Source: Candidatus Bathyarchaeota archaeon
Lineage (GTDB): Archaea; Thermoproteota; Bathyarchaeia; TCS64
Assembly (NCBI GenBank): GCA_013329615.1
Contig: DUKA01000095.1
Coordinates: forward strand, 1 to 36,613
Direction: 5' to 3'
DNA: 36,613 bases
Shown: piece after piece, positions 5,316 to 34,842 of the stretch
Numbering within the stretch: the first letter of the stretch is position 1
Layout: each line of letters begins with the position of its first letter
Notes under the pieces: generated by a model
Database searches by the model: none
What the model was told of the DNA's origin: nothing
What the model saw: only the letters and a program-made list of their open reading frames with translations
Program-made: the position numbers and the translations under genes

Positions 5316-7007
5316 TTATGCCTCCAGCAGCGCGTCCTTGAGCCCCGCACCCGGCGGAACTATGGGGTACACGTTCTCCTCTGGGTCTATTGGTACATCG
5401 ATGACTGTCGAGACGTCGCTCTTTATGGCGCGCCTGACGGCGGCCTGGAAGCCTTCGAGGGTGTCGACCCTGACTCCCTCAGCCCCGTACGCCTCTGCGA
5501 GCTTCACCATGTCAGGGTTGCCCTTGAGCTTAACCGCGGAGTAGCGGTGGTCGAAGAAAAGGCGCTGCCACTGCGCGACCATGCCGAGCATGTGATTGTT
5601 GAGCACGACGACGACCACGGGGAGGTCCTCCTCGATGCTCGTCGCCATGCTGTTCTCGGTCATGCCGAAGCTTCCGTCGCCCGCGATGTCGACGACGGGG
5701 ACGTCGGGCCTCGCCGCCTTGACGCCTATCGCGGCTGGGAAGCCCCAGCCCATCGTGCCTAGGCCGCCGCTCGTGAAGAATGTGCGTGGGTCGTATGCGT
5801 CGTAGTGTAGCGCCGCCCACATCTGGCACTGGCCGACCTCCGTAGTGACTATCGCCTCGCGTGGGAGAGCGTTACGCAGCGTCTTGACGACGTCGGGTGC
5901 CCTGAGGTAGCCCTCCTTGTGCCCGTTGCCGGTGCCATTCATCTGGAGGCGGAACTCGGAGACCCTCTTGCTCCACTGGGAGCCGGCGTCGCCGCTGGCG
6001 CGTAGCTTGCTCACGTTGTAGAGCAGACCGCGCAGGCCGAGGCTGGCGTCTCCGACGACGCGTGTCACGGTCTCCACGTTCTTGTCTATCTCGCTCCTGT
6101 CGATGTCGAGGTGGATGACCTTCGCGTTTGGCGCGAAGCTCTTCACGGAGCCTGTCGTCCTGTCGCTGAGGCGCGCCCCGGCGATTAGGAGCACATCCGC
6201 CTCTGGGACGAGGTTGTTCGCCGCCTGCGTGCCATGCATGCCGCACAGGCCGAGGCTGAGCGGGTGGTCAGCGGGGAACGCGCCCTTGCCCATTAGTGTT
6301 GTTGCGGTTGGTGCCATAAGGTACTCGCATAGGGCGACCAGCTCGCGGCTCGCGCCGGAGTTGATGATGCCGCCGCCGGCGACCACGACGGGTCTCTGCG
6401 CCTTCGCTAGCAGGTTCGCCGCCCACTCCACCTCGCGCGGGTCGGGCTGGTAGTTGGGGTGGTAGCCCCTGAGCTTGACGGTCTCGGGGAAGCTGACGTC
6501 CTCCACATCCGTGGTGACGTCCTTGGGCAGGTCGACGAGGACCGCGCCCCGCCGCCCCGTCGAGGCGATCTGGAAGGCGGTCTTGACCGCTTTCGGTATC
6601 TCACTTGCCTTCCTGACCTGCATGTTGTACTTGGTGACGGAGGCGCTGCACCCGATGATGTCGACCTCCTGGAAGGCGTCTGTGCCGATGGTGGCGCGTG
6701 TGACCTGCCCCGTGAAGGCGACGACGGCACTCGAGTCGCTGTGTGCGGTAGCGATGCCGGTGACGACGTTTGTCGCGCCAGGTCCCGAGGTGGCGAGACA
6801 GACCCCGACTCCGCCCGTCGCGCGGGCGTAGCCGTCAGCCATGTGAGCGGCCCCCTGCTCGTGCCGCGCCAGGATGAACCTGAAGTCTCCGTTTAGTATC
6901 TCGTCGCAGAGCGGGATGACGACCCCGCCGGGGAGCCCGAAAACGTATTTGACACCCTCCAATTCGAGGGACTTCACGAATGCCTTTGTGCCAGCCATCT
7001 CAACCAT
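5316..7007 (-). CDS. ilvB: Acetolactate synthase large (catalytic) subunit, ThDP-dependent, copy 1
   Basis: ThDP-enzyme blocks are SGPGATN, GTDAFQE and GDGSFxM...NN. The track starts at TTG 7043. ATG 7007 (MVEMAGTKAFVKSL) has GGAGG 9 nt upstream and aligns residue-for-residue with the start of copy 2 (MTEMTGAEAYVKAL), so 7007 is preferred. Confidence 0.95.
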   Translation of the reverse strand: MVEMAGTKAFVKSLELEGVKYVFGLPGGVVIPLCDEILNGDFRFILARHEQGAAHMADGYARATGGVGVCLATSGPGATNVVTGIATAHSDSSAVVAFTGQVTRATIGTDAFQEVDIIGCSASVTKYNMQVRKASEIPKAVKTAFQIASTGRRGAVLVDLPKDVTTDVEDVSFPETVKLRGYHPNYQPDPREVEWAANLLAKAQRPVVVAGGGIINSGASRELVALCEYLMAPTATTLMGKGAFPADHPLSLGLCGMHGTQAANNLVPEADVLLIAGARLSDRTTGSVKSFAPNAKVIHLDIDRSEIDKNVETVTRVVGDASLGLRGLLYNVSKLRASGDAGSQWSKRVSEFRLQMNGTGNGHKEGYLRAPDVVKTLRNALPREAIVTTEVGQCQMWAALHYDAYDPRTFFTSGGLGTMGWGFPAAIGVKAARPDVPVVDIAGDGSFGMTENSMATSIEEDLPVVVVVLNNHMLGMVAQWQRLFFDHRYSAVKLKGNPDMVKLAEAYGAEGVRVDTLEGFQAAVRRAIKSDVSTVIDVPIDPEENVYPIVPPGAGLKDALLEA

Positions 7008-7233
7008 AGACATGCGCCTCCAAAGAGTAGAATCGGGTACCAAGCCATGCAGCTTGATCCTTTGCGGAACTCACTACAAACTGTTTAGACTCACTCGGGG
7101 TAGAGCTACCGAATAAAGCGATACCCCATCTACGCCACCCTCCACTCGGCGGCCATGATAAAGCGATACCCCATGACACCAATCTCCAAACGGTATGTAG
7201 GGGGAAGAGCGGCGGCACCGAATAAAAGGTTTG
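7008..7233 (-). promoter_or_regulatory. ilvB-1 promoter box plus long leader with two abutting mini-ORFs and hairpins
   Basis: Minus-sense CAAACCTTTTATTCG lies at 7233..7219. Mini-ORF 7174..7130 encodes MGYRFIMAAEWRVA. Mini-ORF 7129..7106 encodes MGYRFIR. A hairpin pairs GGGGTA with TACCCC (plus coordinates 7122-7127 / 7097-7102). A second hairpin is CAAGC-n6-GCTTG (7041-7056). GGAGG lies at 7021..7017. The architecture is mirrored upstream of ilvB-2. Confidence 0.5.
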
Positions 7234-30608: not shown

Positions 30609-32228
30609 ATGGCCGCCGAGAGGCTGACAAAGAGTCTTAAAGACCTCGGACTCAGAGAAGAGGAGGCAGAAATGTACGTTTTCATCTCGGCAATGGGCCC
30701 AACGCCGGTCCGCGCCGTAGCGAGAAAATTCAATCTGAACAGAATGAGGATCTATAGAAGTCTGAAGGCCCTCGAGGAGAAGAAGCTCGTGCAGAGGGTC
30801 ATGGGCCGACCCGTGAAATTCGTTGCGACCCCAATGAGGAGCGTTATAGATCAGAGGATCGGGGTGCTTAGGCAGAATCTTTCGGGGCTTGAGGAGAACG
30901 CCGAGTCGATTGTGTCGGAGTGGAAACGCCTCTCGAGCGACACACTGGAGTCGTCTGAGGAGCCCCGCTTCAGGATATACCAAGGGAGACAGAACGTCTT
31001 CGACCTGCTCTTCGAGATGGTGGAGAGGAGCGGCAGGGTGATCCGCCTCGTCACAACCACAAATGATCTCTCCCGATTCGCCCTCGCCGGGCTCGACGAC
31101 AAGTTGAAGGCGATGAAACGTAGCGGCGTCGAGGTGAGGATCCTGACACAGATAGATGCCGGGAGCCTCGATGTGGTTGGTCAATACGCCAAGTCATTCG
31201 ATCTACGGCACATCAACCTCAAGACGCCGATAAGATTCGCGATCACCGACGAGAAGGAAGCGCTCAACACAATAACCATGGATGACTCCATGAACATGAC
31301 CACTCAGACAGACATGGGGCTGTGGACCGACGCCTCGAACTACGTCGCAGCTCAGAGAACCTTCTTCGACGCCCTATGGAGTCTCGCCGACGACGCCAAC
31401 TCGGTCATACGGTTCATACAAACGGGGACCCCAAAACCGGAGATGAAGACATTCACGACGCAGGAAGATTACAATTCTACCTTCCACGATATGATCGGTA
31501 GGGCGTTTGGAAGGATAGACCTTCTCGCCAAGAACATAACCACTCTCCCTACAACCTTATCCGAACTCGAAGAAAAAACGAGGAAGGGGGTAGACATTAG
31601 GCTCCTCATACACACCGAACTGGAGAACATCCACGAGATCGATAAAATCGTAAAAAAAAATATCATCAACATCTCCGAGAACGCCGTTATAACGGACCTC
31701 GTTCTCTTGATCGTCGACCAGAAAGAGGCACTCATGAATATACCACACGCCGAGACACAGAAGTGGGCCCTATGGTCGAACATCAACACCTACGTCGAAA
31801 CATCCACCATCGTCTTCAACGACTACTGGAACCTCAGCAAACCAATCAAGGAGAAGCTTGAACAGATCGACCGGCTGAAAAGGATCGATTTCGTAGCGGC
31901 TAAGATCAGGGAGAGATTCGAGGAGAAGGGATGGACCGTAGAGGTTCCCGGGACGCTGACGGGGGTGTCGTGGAAGACGTACATGTTTGACGTGTTGGCG
32001 AAGAACCCGGACAAGACGGGTGTAAATCTCTGCATCGACGTGATCACCGAGGGCCCTGTGTTTAACAAGATAATCGAGAGGAGCACACTATACTCGGATC
32101 TGGTGGGCTCAATGGTCGTCCTCGCCTCACTCGTAAAATGCAGACCCGAGGAGCTTCAGCTCGCCGAGCTATATCAGATAAAAATTGTATACGCCGAAAC
32201 GCCGGAAGAGATAGTCTCGTCTTTTTAA
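30609..32228 (+). CDS. TrmB-family transcriptional regulator, unusually long (539 aa): wHTH, two TrmB_C/PLD-like sensor-type domains, and an unassigned C-terminal domain
   Basis: The N-terminus LKDLGLREEEAEMYVFISAMGPTPVRAVARKFNLNRMRIYRSLKALEEKKLV is a textbook TrmB wHTH. Two similar ~150-aa segments follow (RFRIYQGRQNVFDLL...; STFHDMIGRAFGRIDLL...). No HxK(x)4D catalytic motif was seen. Confidence 0.85.
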   Translation: MAAERLTKSLKDLGLREEEAEMYVFISAMGPTPVRAVARKFNLNRMRIYRSLKALEEKKLVQRVMGRPVKFVATPMRSVIDQRIGVLRQNLSGLEENAESIVSEWKRLSSDTLESSEEPRFRIYQGRQNVFDLLFEMVERSGRVIRLVTTTNDLSRFALAGLDDKLKAMKRSGVEVRILTQIDAGSLDVVGQYAKSFDLRHINLKTPIRFAITDEKEALNTITMDDSMNMTTQTDMGLWTDASNYVAAQRTFFDALWSLADDANSVIRFIQTGTPKPEMKTFTTQEDYNSTFHDMIGRAFGRIDLLAKNITTLPTTLSELEEKTRKGVDIRLLIHTELENIHEIDKIVKKNIINISENAVITDLVLLIVDQKEALMNIPHAETQKWALWSNINTYVETSTIVFNDYWNLSKPIKEKLEQIDRLKRIDFVAAKIRERFEEKGWTVEVPGTLTGVSWKTYMFDVLAKNPDKTGVNLCIDVITEGPVFNKIIERSTLYSDLVGSMVVLASLVKCRPEELQLAELYQIKIVYAETPEEIVSSF

Positions 32229-32303
32229 AAAAAACGCAAAAAAAGAGAAAAAAACGGGGTAACCATTACTTAATATAGGATTTACAACATAACAAATTCC
32301 GCT

Positions 32304-32936
32304 ATGACGCCTAATGGAGACATGAGGGCTTTCATTCAGTCCGTCAAACCGAAAGATCATAGCGTACTTTTTTACGACGACGTCGAAAAAAAGAGAGAAA
32401 TCGTGTTTAACTACCTCTCTGAGGGGCTCTTCAAGAGCCGCGGCATAGTCTACGTTTGTGCGGAGGAGACGCCTGAGGGCGTCAGGAGGGGACTCGCAGC
32501 CGCAGGTGTGGATGTCGAGCCCAACGAGAGGTCGGGCAACATACTGATCAAGACATATGAAGGATGGTATCGCGAGGGCGGCATGGTCGATCCCCTCAAG
32601 ATAATAAACAGATGGAACGATGCGGCGGACAGGTTCAAAGAAAAGGGCCTGGGCACACGCGTGACTGGGGAGACCTCGAAGTTCTTCCAAGACGATAAGG
32701 TGAGGGAGCTGTTGAGGTACGAATACGCCCTGCACAAGGTGATGACCATGCCCATAGAAACCCTCTGCGTCTACAACCTGAACACTATCATCCAGACTGG
32801 TTACACGGAGATGATCATGCCCCTCGTGAGGGCACACGGCAAAGCCATATTCTCCTCGAAGAACGGCTGCGCCATAATCGAGCCCGAGGAGATCGAAGAC
32901 ACTGACGTCGAAAAGCTTCTGGAGATCAAGATTTAG
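32304..32936 (+). CDS. MEDS-domain protein (MEthanogen/methylotroph DcmR Sensory domain)
   Basis: The N-terminal KDHSVLFYDDVEKKREIVFNYLSEGLFKSRGIVYVCAEE matches the MEDS signature as I recall it (H-x-v-lfY..eeel...v.fl.eGl..ge..vyv). 210 aa, typical size. Confidence 0.7.
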   Translation: MTPNGDMRAFIQSVKPKDHSVLFYDDVEKKREIVFNYLSEGLFKSRGIVYVCAEETPEGVRRGLAAAGVDVEPNERSGNILIKTYEGWYREGGMVDPLKIINRWNDAADRFKEKGLGTRVTGETSKFFQDDKVRELLRYEYALHKVMTMPIETLCVYNLNTIIQTGYTEMIMPLVRAHGKAIFSSKNGCAIIEPEEIEDTDVEKLLEIKI

Positions 32937-32961
32937 CGGAATAATAGCCGCCGGCGACCTC

Positions 32962-33159
32962 CAAACCTTTTTATTCGATACGCGGGTTGGAATAGCTCAC
33001 ATCCCGCAAGGGAGGATGGAACATGGGGTATTGCTTTGTCGAGCCCCCGAATGCGGGGGAAAGTTGAATGGGGAATCGTATTCTTAGTTAACAGATTCCC
33101 ATCCGAACCCAAGAACGTTGGATCATTGATCCAAGGAAAGATTCTGGAGGATACCATGC
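32962..33159 (+). promoter_or_regulatory. ilvB-2 promoter box plus long leader with two abutting mini-ORFs and hairpins
   Basis: CAAACCTTTTTATTCG lies at 32962-32977. Mini-ORF 33023-33067 encodes MGYCFVEPPNAGES. Mini-ORF 33068-33091 encodes MGNRILS. Hairpins are CCCCCG/CGGGGG (33044-33059) and GGGAATC/GATTCCC (33071-33100). The palindrome TTGGATCA-T-TGATCCAA lies at 33118-33134. GGAGG lies at 33146-33150, 9 nt before ATG 33160. Confidence 0.5.
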
Positions 33160-34842
33160 ATGACTGAGATGACCGGCGCCGAGGCGTACGTCAAGGCGCT
33201 AGAGAAGGAGGGCGTCAAATACCTCTTCGGGGTAACCGGCGCCGCAATCATACCCATCTGCGACGACCTGCTGAAGTCGAAGATTCGCTACATAGGTGGC
33301 GCCCACGAGCAGGGCTCAACCCACATGGCGGACGGCTACGCGCGCGTCTCCGGGCACCCCGGTGTCGTGCAGGTCACTAGCGGCCCAGGCGCGACGAACA
33401 TAGTCACAGGGCTCGCCACGGCGCAGCTCGATTCCTCGCCAGTTGTCGCCCTCACCGGGCAGGTCCCACTCAGCATGGTCGGCACAGACGCCTTCCAAGA
33501 GGTCGACATCATAGGCATCACCGCCTCCGTCACCAAGCACAACATACAGGTCATGGAGGCGGTGGAGATACCGCACGCCATCAAGTCGGCCTTCTACATC
33601 TCCTCGACCGGAAGGAAGGGCGCCGTCCTCGTGGATATCCCGAAGGACACCCAGACGGACAAGGCGGATATGGTCTTCCCGGATAAGGTCGAGTTCCGCG
33701 GCTACCACCCGAATATCGAGCCCAACTCGCAGGAGATGCACTGGGCAGCGACGCTCCTCGCAAAGGCGCGGAGACCAGTCATCATCGCGGGAGGCGGAGC
33801 AATCGCATCGGGAGCAACGATGGAACTCATCGAACTCGCCGAGATGCTGCAAGCCCCCGTAGCCACCAGCCTCATGGGGAAGGGGGCCATACCCAGCAAC
33901 CACCCACTCAGCCTCGGTCTCTGTGGGATGCATGGCCGCTGCGAGGCGAACTACATCGTCCCCGAGGCGGATGTCCTCCTAGTCGTTGGAGCACGCTTCA
34001 GCGATCGCACGACGGGCTCCCTCCGAGGCTTCGCCCCAAACGCACGCATAATTCACATCGACGTCGACCGCAGCGAGATAGACAAAAACGTCGACAGTAT
34101 CACACGCATAGTCGGAGACGCCAAACTCGCGATACGGGGCATCCGCGAGAAGGTCGCCCAGCAGAGGAACACGGGGCACACAGATGAGGACCTCGTGAAG
34201 AGGATCAAGGAATTCAAGGCACAGTCGGACACCCTCAACACGTCGCCACTCTCCGGCCCAGAAGTCATACGAGCGATAAGACGCGCCATGCCCCCAGACA
34301 GCATAGTCGTAACTGATGTTGGACAACACCAGATGTGGGCTGCGCAGCACTACGATGTCCGCGGACCCGGCGAGTTCTTCACGAGCGGCGGATTGGGCAC
34401 CATGGGCTGGGGGACGCCCGCAGCCATAGGCGCCAAGGCGGCGAGGCCCGACCTCCCCCTGTTGAACATCTCCGGCGACGGCAGCTTCGCCATGACCGAG
34501 AACAACCTAGCCATCGCCGTCGACGAGGGTTTCCCAGTCACCGTCGTGATCCTGAACAACGGCGTCCTCGGAATGGTCGCACAGTGGCAACGCCTCTTCT
34601 ACAACCGCAGATACAGCACGATACAACGCCCGAAGCACCCCGACTTCGTGAAACTAGCAGAGAGCTACGGGGCCACGGGGGTGAAGGCGGAGTCGACGAA
34701 GCAGATAGAGACCGCCATCAAGCGCAGCATCAAGGAGAAGCAGACCACCGTCATCGATGTCCCGATGGACCCTGAGGAAAACGTTTACCCCATGATCCCG
34801 CCGGGCATGGGGCTCAAGGACATCCTCCTAGGAGGCGCCTAA
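33160..34842 (+). CDS. ilvB: Acetolactate synthase large subunit, copy 2 (paralog of 5316..7007)
   Basis: 560 aa with the same ThDP-enzyme blocks. About two-thirds of residues are identical to copy 1 over an N-terminal ~146-aa stretch counted by hand. Confidence 0.95.
   Translation: MTEMTGAEAYVKALEKEGVKYLFGVTGAAIIPICDDLLKSKIRYIGGAHEQGSTHMADGYARVSGHPGVVQVTSGPGATNIVTGLATAQLDSSPVVALTGQVPLSMVGTDAFQEVDIIGITASVTKHNIQVMEAVEIPHAIKSAFYISSTGRKGAVLVDIPKDTQTDKADMVFPDKVEFRGYHPNIEPNSQEMHWAATLLAKARRPVIIAGGGAIASGATMELIELAEMLQAPVATSLMGKGAIPSNHPLSLGLCGMHGRCEANYIVPEADVLLVVGARFSDRTTGSLRGFAPNARIIHIDVDRSEIDKNVDSITRIVGDAKLAIRGIREKVAQQRNTGHTDEDLVKRIKEFKAQSDTLNTSPLSGPEVIRAIRRAMPPDSIVVTDVGQHQMWAAQHYDVRGPGEFFTSGGLGTMGWGTPAAIGAKAARPDLPLLNISGDGSFAMTENNLAIAVDEGFPVTVVILNNGVLGMVAQWQRLFYNRRYSTIQRPKHPDFVKLAESYGATGVKAESTKQIETAIKRSIKEKQTTVIDVPMDPEENVYPMIPPGMGLKDILLGGA

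Follow-up and report, generated by a model that had tools for sequence, protein, structure and literature searches.

A conserved translated leader upstream of both ilvB genes of Bathyarchaeia as a candidate ribosome-read amino-acid sensor

Introduction

Two paralogous genes for the large subunit of acetohydroxy-acid synthase (AHAS), ilvB-1 and ilvB-2, are encoded by one contig of an uncultured Candidatus Bathyarchaeota archaeon, and each is preceded by a leader with two very short open reading frames (ORFs) and several hairpins. What do these leaders encode, and how might they act on the gene behind them? The window studied here is the whole contig DUKA01000095.1 of the assembly GCA_013329615.1, 36,613 nt in length. 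A sequence-only reading of it had drawn attention to a hairpin bracketing the second mini-ORF in both leaders and had taken the differing but complementary arms as a sign of selection on RNA structure. We find that the leader as a whole is a conserved translated cis-regulatory element ahead of both AHAS large-subunit genes and of their homologues in relatives, and that the hairpin is a genuine but minor accessory element of it. On balance, the leader would seem to be a ribosome-read amino-acid sensor, in which a long overlapping frame delivers ribosomes to the ilvB start.

Leader Collection and Searches

Homologous leaders were collected in two ways. A metagenome scan with a two-cassette DNA pattern yielded 116 stretches containing 111 distinct leaders, and contigs encoding ilvB homologues (62–89% identity) yielded 13 distinct leaders, the motif not being used in choosing them. 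Many cassette positions were preset in the scan pattern; what is said of them below draws on the letters left free there and on the 13 leaders anchored by protein.

The 13 leaders retrieved by protein alone have the same architecture as the pattern-found set, and wherever the gene downstream of a pattern-found leader could be read, it is an ilvB homologue, of either the ilvB-1 or the ilvB-2 type. A loose single-cassette pattern gave just three chance matches across 80 bacterial ilvB loci (1.1 Mb). A scan of genome contigs with the ilvB-2 protein revealed, among the matches listed, only bacterial loci with 42–49% identity and no homologous leaders. A search of the window with Rfam 15, which includes ilvB-associated motifs, gave no matches at the gathering score, both leaders producing only noise (E = 8.4), and a tRNA search of the window found none.

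Anatomy of the Leaders

Leaders 1 and 2 align from a common AAACCTTTT(T)ATTCG promoter-like box through the second mini-ORF and, judging by this alignment, are homologous. In leader 2 (plus strand), a promoter-like element of the B recognition element (BRE)/TATA type, AAACCTTTTTATTCG, is located at 32963–32977; the same element is found in leader 1 (AAACCTTTTATTCGG, 7218–7232, minus strand). From the usual archaeal TATA-to-start spacing, the transcription start of leader 2 is expected near 32999–33001 (ACAT). A Shine–Dalgarno (SD) sequence, SD1 (GGGAGG, 33010–33015), serves ATG1, which opens cassette 1 (ATGGGGTATTGCTTTGTC, 33023–33040). This cassette comprises the AUG, a GGGG run, the rare codons UAU-UGC-UUU, and a Val codon at position 6. 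It belongs to the 14-codon first upstream ORF (uORF1; 33023–33067, encoding MGYCFVEPPNAGES), whose TGA abuts ATG2. Cassette 2 and the 7-codon uORF2 (MGNRILS; ATG GGG AAT CGT ATT CTT AGT TAA) follow at 33068–33091, and further downstream lie SD3 (GGAGG, 33146–33150) and the ilvB-2 start codon (33160–33162).

Leader 1 is arranged in the same manner on the minus strand. SD1 (GGAG, 7187–7184) is followed by cassette 1 (ATGGGGTATCGCTTTATC, 7174–7157) within a 14-codon uORF1 (7130–7174, encoding MGYRFIMAAEWRVA), the stop of which abuts the next ATG. Cassette 2 and the 7-codon uORF2 (MGYRFIR) occupy 7106–7129. The 7-codon ORFs and the arms of the hairpin around them lie in both leaders where the sequence-only reading had placed them.

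As far as can be read from the signals compared across the set, the leader carries signals for translation. A TATA-like TTTWWW is present 51–57 nt before ATG1 in 98 of 103 leaders, and a GGAG/GAGG core lies 7–9 nt ahead of ATG1 in 99 of 106 distinct leaders. ATG2 is preceded by a G-run in every leader (106/106), and the ilvB ATG by an SD-like motif in all 92. The start codon of cassette 1 is ATG, GTG (L089), or TTG (L213), and no other triplet. The length of uORF1 is 13 or 14 codons in all 111 leaders; its stop is TGA, TAA, or TAG (46, 52, and 11 leaders) and never TGG. Among the 13 protein-anchored leaders, the distance from stop 1 to ATG2 is 0 nt in ten and 3 nt in L212, while in L093 the two overlap as TAATG. 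The frame-0 ORF of cassette 2 varies from 6 to 12 codons, and the spacer between the cassettes and ilvB is 60–130 nt long. Two tandem cassettes are usual; L093 and L094 have only one working copy.

Cassettes and Candidate Sensor Codons

The cassette is an 18-nt sequence with the consensus AUG-GGG-WAU-YRY-NUU followed by a Val, Ile, or Leu codon, and it is present in one or, usually, two tandem copies. Nucleotides 7, 8, 10, 13, 14, and 16 are invariant or nearly so (nucleotide 10 is A in 2 of 111 copies of cassette 1), whereas nucleotides 6, 9, 12, 15, and 18, together with 11 and 17, vary. The U at nucleotides 8, 13, 14, and 16 is invariant, though the scan pattern allowed Y at the first three of these and any base at the last.

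Codon 6 in frame 0 encodes Val, Ile, or Leu in 219 of 220 cassettes, at positions that were free in the search pattern. In cassette 1 it is GUC or GUU in 93 leaders and AUC in 18. In cassette 2 it depends on the gene downstream: it is AUU or AUC in all ilvB-1-type leaders and CUU or CUC in 32 of 33 ilvB-2-type leaders. The presumed sensor codons of the window are Ile and Ile in leader 1 and Val and Leu in leader 2 (cassette 2 codons at 7114–7112 and 33083–33085). This paralogue-specific choice suggests isozyme-specific control.

NUU stands at the codon before it, codon 5, in every case. The base after UUU is G or A, and that after AUU, GUU, and CUU is C; therefore, at least two of the three positions could re-pair in the +1 frame. 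Where nucleotide 12 is not U, nucleotide 15 is C, as seen in four lineages (clusters 4 and 6, L211, and L214). The GGGG run lies 6 nt before NUU in every cassette, and hairpin H1 begins about 7 nt after cassette 1.

When the cassette is read in frame 0, first positions of codons vary (Y/N; R/C/S/N/Y; F/I) and the synonymous third positions are fixed as U. The codons so fixed are infrequent in the window's genes, where TTT, TAT, AAT, and ATT make up 11%, 11%, 13%, and 5% of their codon families. When it is read in the +1 frame, the variation falls on third positions and the peptide G-I-[A/V/T]-[L/F] is preserved. The frozen U of frame 0, the branched-chain amino acid (BCAA) codon 6, and the third-position pattern of the +1 frame together indicate that both frames carry a signal.

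The Open +1 Frame to the ilvB Start

A stronger constraint than the hairpin around uORF2 is a reading frame that is +1 relative to the mini-ORFs. In leader 2 it spans 33024–33167 on the plus strand (W-G-I-A-L-S...W-G-I-V-F-L-V), with a TTG at 33036, from which it appears in the ORF listing as 33036–33167; its TGA (33165–33167) lies 5 nt inside ilvB-2. In leader 1 it spans 7000–7182 on the minus strand, with TTG (7182–7180) and GTG (7179–7177) upstream of cassette 1 and a TGA (7002–7000) again 5 nt inside ilvB-1 (ATG 7007–7005). No stop interrupts this frame from ATG1 to the ilvB ATG in 95 of 97 leaders, whereas the other sense frames contain two to four. The first stop falls between –4 and +10 of the ilvB ATG in all 97; it is a TGA at +5 in 79 leaders and is otherwise located at –4, +1, +4, +5 (as TAG), +7, or +10.

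The distance from ATG2 to the ilvB ATG leaves a remainder of 2 on division by 3 in 82 leaders, of 0 in 15, and of 1 in none, and within clusters spacer lengths differ by multiples of three because the frame that is +1 relative to the mini-ORFs is kept open. According to dinucleotide shuffles, the chance of an open spacer is 0.1–0.6 per sequence, and the product over nine clusters, multiplied by hand, is roughly 1e-5. The stop at +5 is maintained by compensation: codons 2–3 of ilvB are NNT-GAG, NNT-AAA, or NNT-AGG (Glu, Lys, or Arg), giving TGA, TAA, or TAG, respectively. Leaders in the other phase have TGA at +10, TAG at +4, or TAA at +7. In the form ATG-NNT-GAG-ATG-A, the ilvB start has stops in both alternative frames within 12 nt (33160–33172; 7007–6995, minus strand; also L212, L214, and L109).

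Spacer substitutions are distributed over the three codon positions as 203, 226, and 226, without periodicity. A conserved small protein encoded by the +1 ORF was considered and rejected on this ground; it is apparently the passage of ribosomes, and not the peptide, that is selected. Taken as a whole, the sequence-only reading is borne out in part: the homology of the two leaders, SD-like sites at the mini-ORFs, and a C-run behind uORF2 in most leaders speak for it, but this stronger constraint had escaped it.

An additional observation concerns the spacers of cluster 8 (L095, L105, L114, and L137). About 45 nt ahead of the ilvB ATG they contain a third, degenerate cassette core, GGGTAYCGYNTG, which in the long frame reads G-Y-R-L, one phase off cassette copies 1 and 2.

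Hairpins and Folding of the Leaders

H1, a strong and universal hairpin, is located within uORF1. In leader 2 it is CCCCCG-aatg-CGGGGG (33044–33059, plus strand; –12.6 kcal/mol, z –2.67), at the position given earlier, and its 3' arm is the SD-like G-run 8 nt ahead of ATG2. The counterpart in leader 1, GCCGCC (7153–7148) pairing with GGUGGC (7139–7134), had been called weak; with –10.8 kcal/mol and a z of –2.22 for 7134–7153 on the minus strand, it is not. H1 is formed in 81 of 81 distinct uORF1 sequences, with a mean energy of –11.6 kcal/mol and a mean z of –2.3, and z is below –1.64 in 79% of them. Its arms vary with compensation (CCCCC/GGGGG, CCUCC/GGAGG, UCCCUC/GAGGGG, GCCGCC/GGUGGC), the inner pair being G:C, C:G, U:A, or A:U, and the residues encoded by the hairpin change radically at the same time (EPPNAGES, MAAEWRVA, and LSLGEGA). 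Formal counting of pairs gives a modest result (covariation 0.123, matched by 31 of 500 shuffles). Since the homopolymeric arms slide in a fixed-column alignment, folding of each sequence is the better measure of H1. In the predicted folds, H1 masks the SD-like site of ATG2, and it is much better supported than H2.

H2 is the hairpin around uORF2. In leader 2, GGGAATC (33071–33077) pairs with GATTCCC (33094–33100) across a 16-nt loop; in leader 1, GGGGTA (7127–7122) pairs with TACCCC (7102–7097) across a 19-nt loop, and this stem (7097–7127, minus strand) is predicted by alifold on cluster 2. The 5' arm had been said to begin at codon 2 in both, which is true of leader 2, while in leader 1 it begins at the G of ATG. 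Folded alone, H2 reaches –10.1 kcal/mol in leader 2 and –13.0 kcal/mol in leader 1 (z –1.04 and –1.31); 30 of 200 and 19 of 200 shuffles, respectively, fold as well. When only the 3' window is shuffled, p is about 0.02 and 0.04. As the single-sequence result is not significant, the case for H2 rests on the comparative data, which are mixed.

On the favourable side, a run of at least three C within 24 nt after stop 2 is present in 80 of 101 distinct leaders (79%), compared with 24% for a downstream control window. With the C-run alone as the anchor, the base preceding it pairs with nucleotide 6 of uORF2 in 67 of the 80 leaders (U-A in 40, U·G in 14, A-U in 13), and, in runs of four C, the following base pairs with U1 of AUG in 41 of 43. 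Inspection by eye shows that 9 of the 13 protein-anchored leaders can form an H2 of at least 5 bp. The duplex has a mean energy of –9.5 kcal/mol; the corresponding values are –7.2 with the 3' window shuffled and –6.7 with a window further downstream. On the other side, the duplex reaches p ≤ 0.05 in just 30% of leaders, the G-run of H1 pairs with the same C-run at least equally well (–10.4), and about 20% of leaders (L085, L105, L130, L158, and others) have a weak H2 or none.

The compensatory change between leaders 1 and 2 that had been reported is a real double change, T-A in leader 1 versus A-T in leader 2, but it amounts to a single event. The A-U (A-T) pair is confined to cluster 4, the lineage of the window's ilvB-2, and the other lineages with AAU (cluster 7 and L122) retain an A·A mismatch. 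The next inner pair (at A7), and with it a helix longer than 5–6 bp, is found in clusters 2 and 4 alone, which are the window's own two lineages; L096 and L115 lengthen the helix differently, by pairing GGGUAUUGU with ACAAUACUC. The covariation of H2, as aligned here, is thus one compensated pair in one lineage plus tolerated wobbles. Judged over the leaders compared, H2 is real and recurrent, but short (4–7 bp, usually 4–6), variable between lineages, and dispensable in about one fifth of them.

Between uORF2 and the SD of ilvB-2, the minimum-free-energy fold contains a third hairpin, H3 (TTGGATC-att-GATCCAA, 33118–33134, plus strand). In relatives a hairpin is retained at this site and its arms differ (TGGATC/GATCCA, CCGGAT/ATCCGG), suggesting that they covary. 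Over their whole length, the leaders are predicted to be no more stable than shuffled sequences (z about 0). Neither a terminator/antiterminator pair nor a conserved oligo-T terminator was found across clusters, and T-runs of 4–5 occur in some cluster-10 spacers only. The C-run after uORF2 was also tried as an anti-SD element for ilvB, freed or captured depending on where the ribosome stands, and rejected: in constrained partition-function folding of four ribosome states, the accessibility of SD3/AUG3 was 0.41 throughout.

Some structures are restricted to particular clusters. In cluster 8 and some cluster-10 leaders, small covarying hairpins lie over the stop codon of cassette 2. The cluster-10 spacers (L094, L129, L167, L170, L127, and L132) contain, about 55–65 nt past uORF2, a conserved GCGTAGAACTTTT(T)CGAGA. 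This motif comes after a covarying GC-rich hairpin, includes a run of 4–5 T, and is not found in the window's two leaders; it could be an archaeal pause or termination signal.

Genomic Context

The nearest relatives of the ilvB-2 product are 89% identical proteins labelled Candidatus Bathyarchaeia, and the products of ilvB-1 and ilvB-2 (7007–5316, minus strand, and 33160–34842, plus strand) share 60% identity. Downstream of ilvB-1 are ilvN and ilvC; downstream of ilvB-2 are ilvN and the gene of a GATase_6 protein. Directly upstream of leader 2, two genes at 30609–32936 on the plus strand encode a regulator of the TrmB family (539 aa) and a protein with a MEDS domain (210 aa). This pair occupies the same place in L082 and L085–L087 and is not found in L081; ilvB-1 leaders have no TrmB or MEDS neighbours.

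In some relatives (L089, 2270–2500; L084; L144), an ilvB-2-type gene with its own leader directly follows the ilvB-1–ilvN–ilvC operon, which places the two leader types one after the other on a single contig. In L089, GTG serves as the first start, and the second AUG is decayed, reading ACG. A 74-codon antisense ORF (32933–33157, minus strand) covers all of leader 2; one antisense frame is often stop-free in clusters 6 and 7 too, and the T-poor composition of the spacer may be the cause. Matches to the cassette pattern were also noted at 5362–5376 (plus strand) and 34779–34793 (minus strand), antisense to the 3' ends of both ilvB genes. They were rejected as additional cassettes, being the reverse complement of codons for a conserved ...VYP(M/I)... 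peptide.

Proposed Mechanism and Alternative Explanations

How might ribosomes come to occupy the long frame? One route, which we put forward tentatively, is a +1 slip at NUU when the BCAA codon next to it is hungry. The full version, held with the same reserve, places two such sites in series, linked by termination–reinitiation, which divert starving ribosomes into a throw-away frame that leads to the ilvB start. At codon 6, ribosomes from AUG1 would probe how much charged branched-chain aminoacyl-tRNA is available. If codon 6 is decoded promptly, they would stop at the end of uORF1, re-start at AUG2, test the second amino acid, and leave the mRNA after uORF2, 60–130 nt short of ilvB. If codon 6 is hungry, the peptidyl-tRNA on the preceding rare NUU would slip by +1; the SD-like GGGG upstream resembles a stimulation of the prfB type, and, for cassette 1, H1 about 7 nt downstream is as far away as would be expected of a 3' stimulator. 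The shifted ribosome would follow the open frame as far as the stop on the ilvB AUG and there hand over by termination–reinitiation, which would raise the translation of ilvB and keep the leader covered with ribosomes. H2 would mask cassette 2 (AUG2 and its GGGG) in ribosome-free RNA, so that cassette 2 would be reached mainly by ribosomes coming from uORF1. Such a scheme would have the right sign, since starvation turns ilvB on, with positive coupling. Both junctions, that of stop 1 with AUG2 and that of the long-frame stop with the ilvB AUG, have the geometry of termination–reinitiation, and in archaea this coupling requires overlaps or very short distances (PMC10666635).

Several results weigh against this frameshift route. 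A canonical TTG or GTG start of the +1 frame is present in all leaders except six of cluster 7, so a frameshift is not required; there is a TTG at nucleotide 13 whenever codon 6 is GUY, and the cluster-2 leaders, which have UUA at nucleotide 13, carry TTG-8 or GTG-5 in 11 of 11 cases. The variation at nucleotides 6, 9, 12, and 15 falls on third positions of the +1 frame and is compatible with a long frame whose Ile, Val, and Leu codons are decoded in the ordinary way. After a shift, ribosomes would still encounter such codons in cassette 2 and in the spacer, where they are not depleted (0.145 observed, 0.161 expected); depletion would have favoured activation by frameshifting, and the result is neutral. 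Overall, no H1-like hairpin, sought as a frameshift stimulator, was found after cassette 2 (mean z +0.13), and the GGGG run is 6 nt from NUU, compared with 3 nt at prfB. Simulated ribosomes on the mini-ORFs leave the predicted accessibility of the ilvB ribosome-binding site unchanged. In addition, ilvB has a strong SD of its own, and coupling may not be needed. The sample is biased as well: most leaders were found with a pattern that fixes much of the cassette, and just 13 are free of this bias.

The main alternative is an ordinary long leader peptide without a frameshift, which we regard as rather unlikely. The +1 ORF would then be translated from its own weak start (TTG13 with GGGG as its SD, or the TTG/GTG upstream in cluster 2), contain one or two Ile-Val/Ala-Leu/Phe checkpoint clusters, and cross the ribosome-binding site of ilvB. 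With all three amino acids present, it would be completed and initiation at ilvB occluded; under scarcity of any of them, a far-upstream stall, or a uORF1-paused ribosome sitting on TTG13, would leave the ilvB site free. The frame-0 mini-ORFs would act as competitors and gatekeepers. The regular occurrence of the starts just listed, the preserved G-I-[A/V]-[L/F], and the frame that is open up to the ilvB start agree with this. So does L089, whose +1 frame still reads G-I-V-L-S with G replaced by W and Y by D in frame 0, and the strong, mostly accessible predicted SD of ilvB is such that the default state could be ON. But any canonical +1 start is missing from the six cluster-7 leaders, and TTG and TTA alternate within clusters. 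Occluding peptide synthesis also leaves unexplained the conserved third-position T and A of the stop 1–ATG2 junction, ATG2 itself, the GGGG run, and the constant, paralogue-specific BCAA codon 6 in frame 0. A weak TTG overlapped by the strong AUG1 site would receive a low ribosome flux and make a poor occluder, and a stop placed right on the ilvB start codon corresponds in its geometry to positive coupling (PMC10666635).

The model implied by the sequence-only reading, in which the frame-0 mini-ORFs and the hairpins suffice, ribosomes melt H1 and H2, their refolding controls expression by attenuation or in the manner of ermC, and the +1 frame is a by-product, seems improbable. It is true that H1 sequesters the SD-like G-run of ATG2 in every leader, that the arms of H2 recur in most of them, and that the BCAA codon has a fixed position at which a stalled ribosome would cover the 5' arm of H1. 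Yet footprints on either mini-ORF leave the unpaired probability of the ilvB SD/AUG at the same value in all states, no conserved terminator-like hairpin with a U-run is seen across leaders, and about 20% of leaders lack H2. Neither the open +1 frame, nor the mod-3 spacers, nor the compensated stop at the ilvB AUG can be accounted for in this way. The idea that a regulatory protein binds the 17–18-nt motif, as DNA or as RNA, with the copies acting as direct repeats spaced by 45 nt past the promoter and the ORFs being incidental, appears very improbable. Its attractions are a nucleotide conservation above the need of either peptide and a candidate binder, the TrmB-family or the MEDS protein encoded just upstream of ilvB-2 (the pair stands directly upstream of the ilvB-2 leader in the window, L082, and L085). 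A binding site would not, however, explain start alternatives limited to ATG, GTG, and TTG, in-frame stops swapping among TGA, TAA, and TAG, correctly spaced SD sites, indels in multiples of three, or a frame open to the ilvB AUG, and the ilvB-1 leaders and L081 have no TrmB or MEDS neighbours. The sensor reading is preferred, with the slip at NUU as a tentative way into the long frame.

Comparison with Known Systems

Leader-peptide control of amino-acid biosynthesis is a textbook bacterial mechanism. The leaders described here resemble the bacterial ilv attenuators (ilvBN and ilvGMEDA of E. coli, the ilvBNC/ilvB-II motif of Corynebacterium, and the ilvB-OMG motif) in having a short translated ORF upstream of ilvB with BCAA-tRNA-dependent decoding, RNA hairpins in and after the ORF, and a leader specific to the ilvB operon (PMC10272879, PMC11857589). 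They differ in the archaeal host, in the lack of a terminator/antiterminator with a U-run and of an Rfam match, in one fixed BCAA codon per frame-0 mini-ORF instead of a run, and in the tandem cassettes with abutting stop and start and a second, overlapping frame that is open to the ilvB AUG.

The proposed slip is closest to the autoregulatory +1 frameshift of prfB, the gene of bacterial release factor 2, where the site is GGGGG-UAU-CUU-UGA-C with an SD-like spacing of 3 nt; the local sequence here is GGGG-UAU-CGY-UUU-GUC. In both, a short zero-frame ORF is continued in the +1 frame, and a shift-prone NUU with a 5' SD-like G-run stands before a codon whose slow decoding reports, or here would report, on the regulated function. 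In prfB genes the shift site is CUU_U, in a minority UUU_U, with the 5' SD stimulator GG_GGG (PMC5009743). Unlike in prfB, the slow codon here would be a sense (BCAA) codon and not a stop, there are two cassettes in series, the +1 product would be a throw-away peptide that carries the ribosome to the next gene, and the frameshift itself is put forward from sequence features.

Termination–reinitiation gene pairs likewise have an upstream stop that overlaps or abuts the start, as seen at both junctions of the leader, where the commonest form of the long-frame stop is ATGNNTGA (PMC6728339, PMC10666635). In the leaders, however, the upstream ORFs are non-conserved and regulatory, and the commonest overlap is 8 nt, while the usual one is 4 or 1 nt. 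The parallel with ermC and cat attenuation is that pausing at a fixed codon would put the ribosome over the 5' arm of H1, the 3' arm of which is the SD of the next ORF. The site unmasked here is that of the second mini-ORF and not of the regulated gene, no response of the ilvB site is predicted, and the signal would be aminoacyl-tRNA supply, not an antibiotic. With the eukaryotic GCN4/ATF4 control, the leader shares serial short uORFs, re-initiation, an out-of-frame ORF over the main start, and a tie between translation and amino-acid supply; it differs in SD-dependent initiation without scanning and in that sensing would take place at uORF codons, not through the ternary complex of initiation factor 2.

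Significance

Full-text literature searches found no archaeal leader-peptide attenuator and no report for Bathyarchaeia. For Archaea, the only proven frameshift listed in a 2021 review of recoding is of the –1 kind (PMC8211752), and frameshifting at hungry codons is not known to be used naturally (PMC5009743). Taken as a whole, the element has good support and apparently has not been described before; it looks like the first archaeal counterpart of bacterial BCAA leader-peptide sensors. It would represent ribosome-mediated leader control of an amino-acid operon; should the frameshift route hold, it would fall into a category of its own. Frameshifting at hungry codons would then serve naturally as an amino-acid sensor, a +1 shift would regulate a cellular gene of an archaeon, and the regulatory principle would be new. 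Read conservatively, it is still a new class of cis-regulatory element for the annotation of uncultured archaea.

Control is predicted to be paralogue-specific, acting through Ile codons on ilvB-1 and through Val and Leu codons on ilvB-2. Reporter experiments are suggested by three of the constraints: the layout in two frames, the stop that abuts the next start, and the compensated stop on the ilvB AUG. Being present in more than 100 Bathyarchaeia sequences, before two paralogous AHAS operons, the leader offers a concrete system for asking whether archaeal ribosomes may serve as metabolite sensors.

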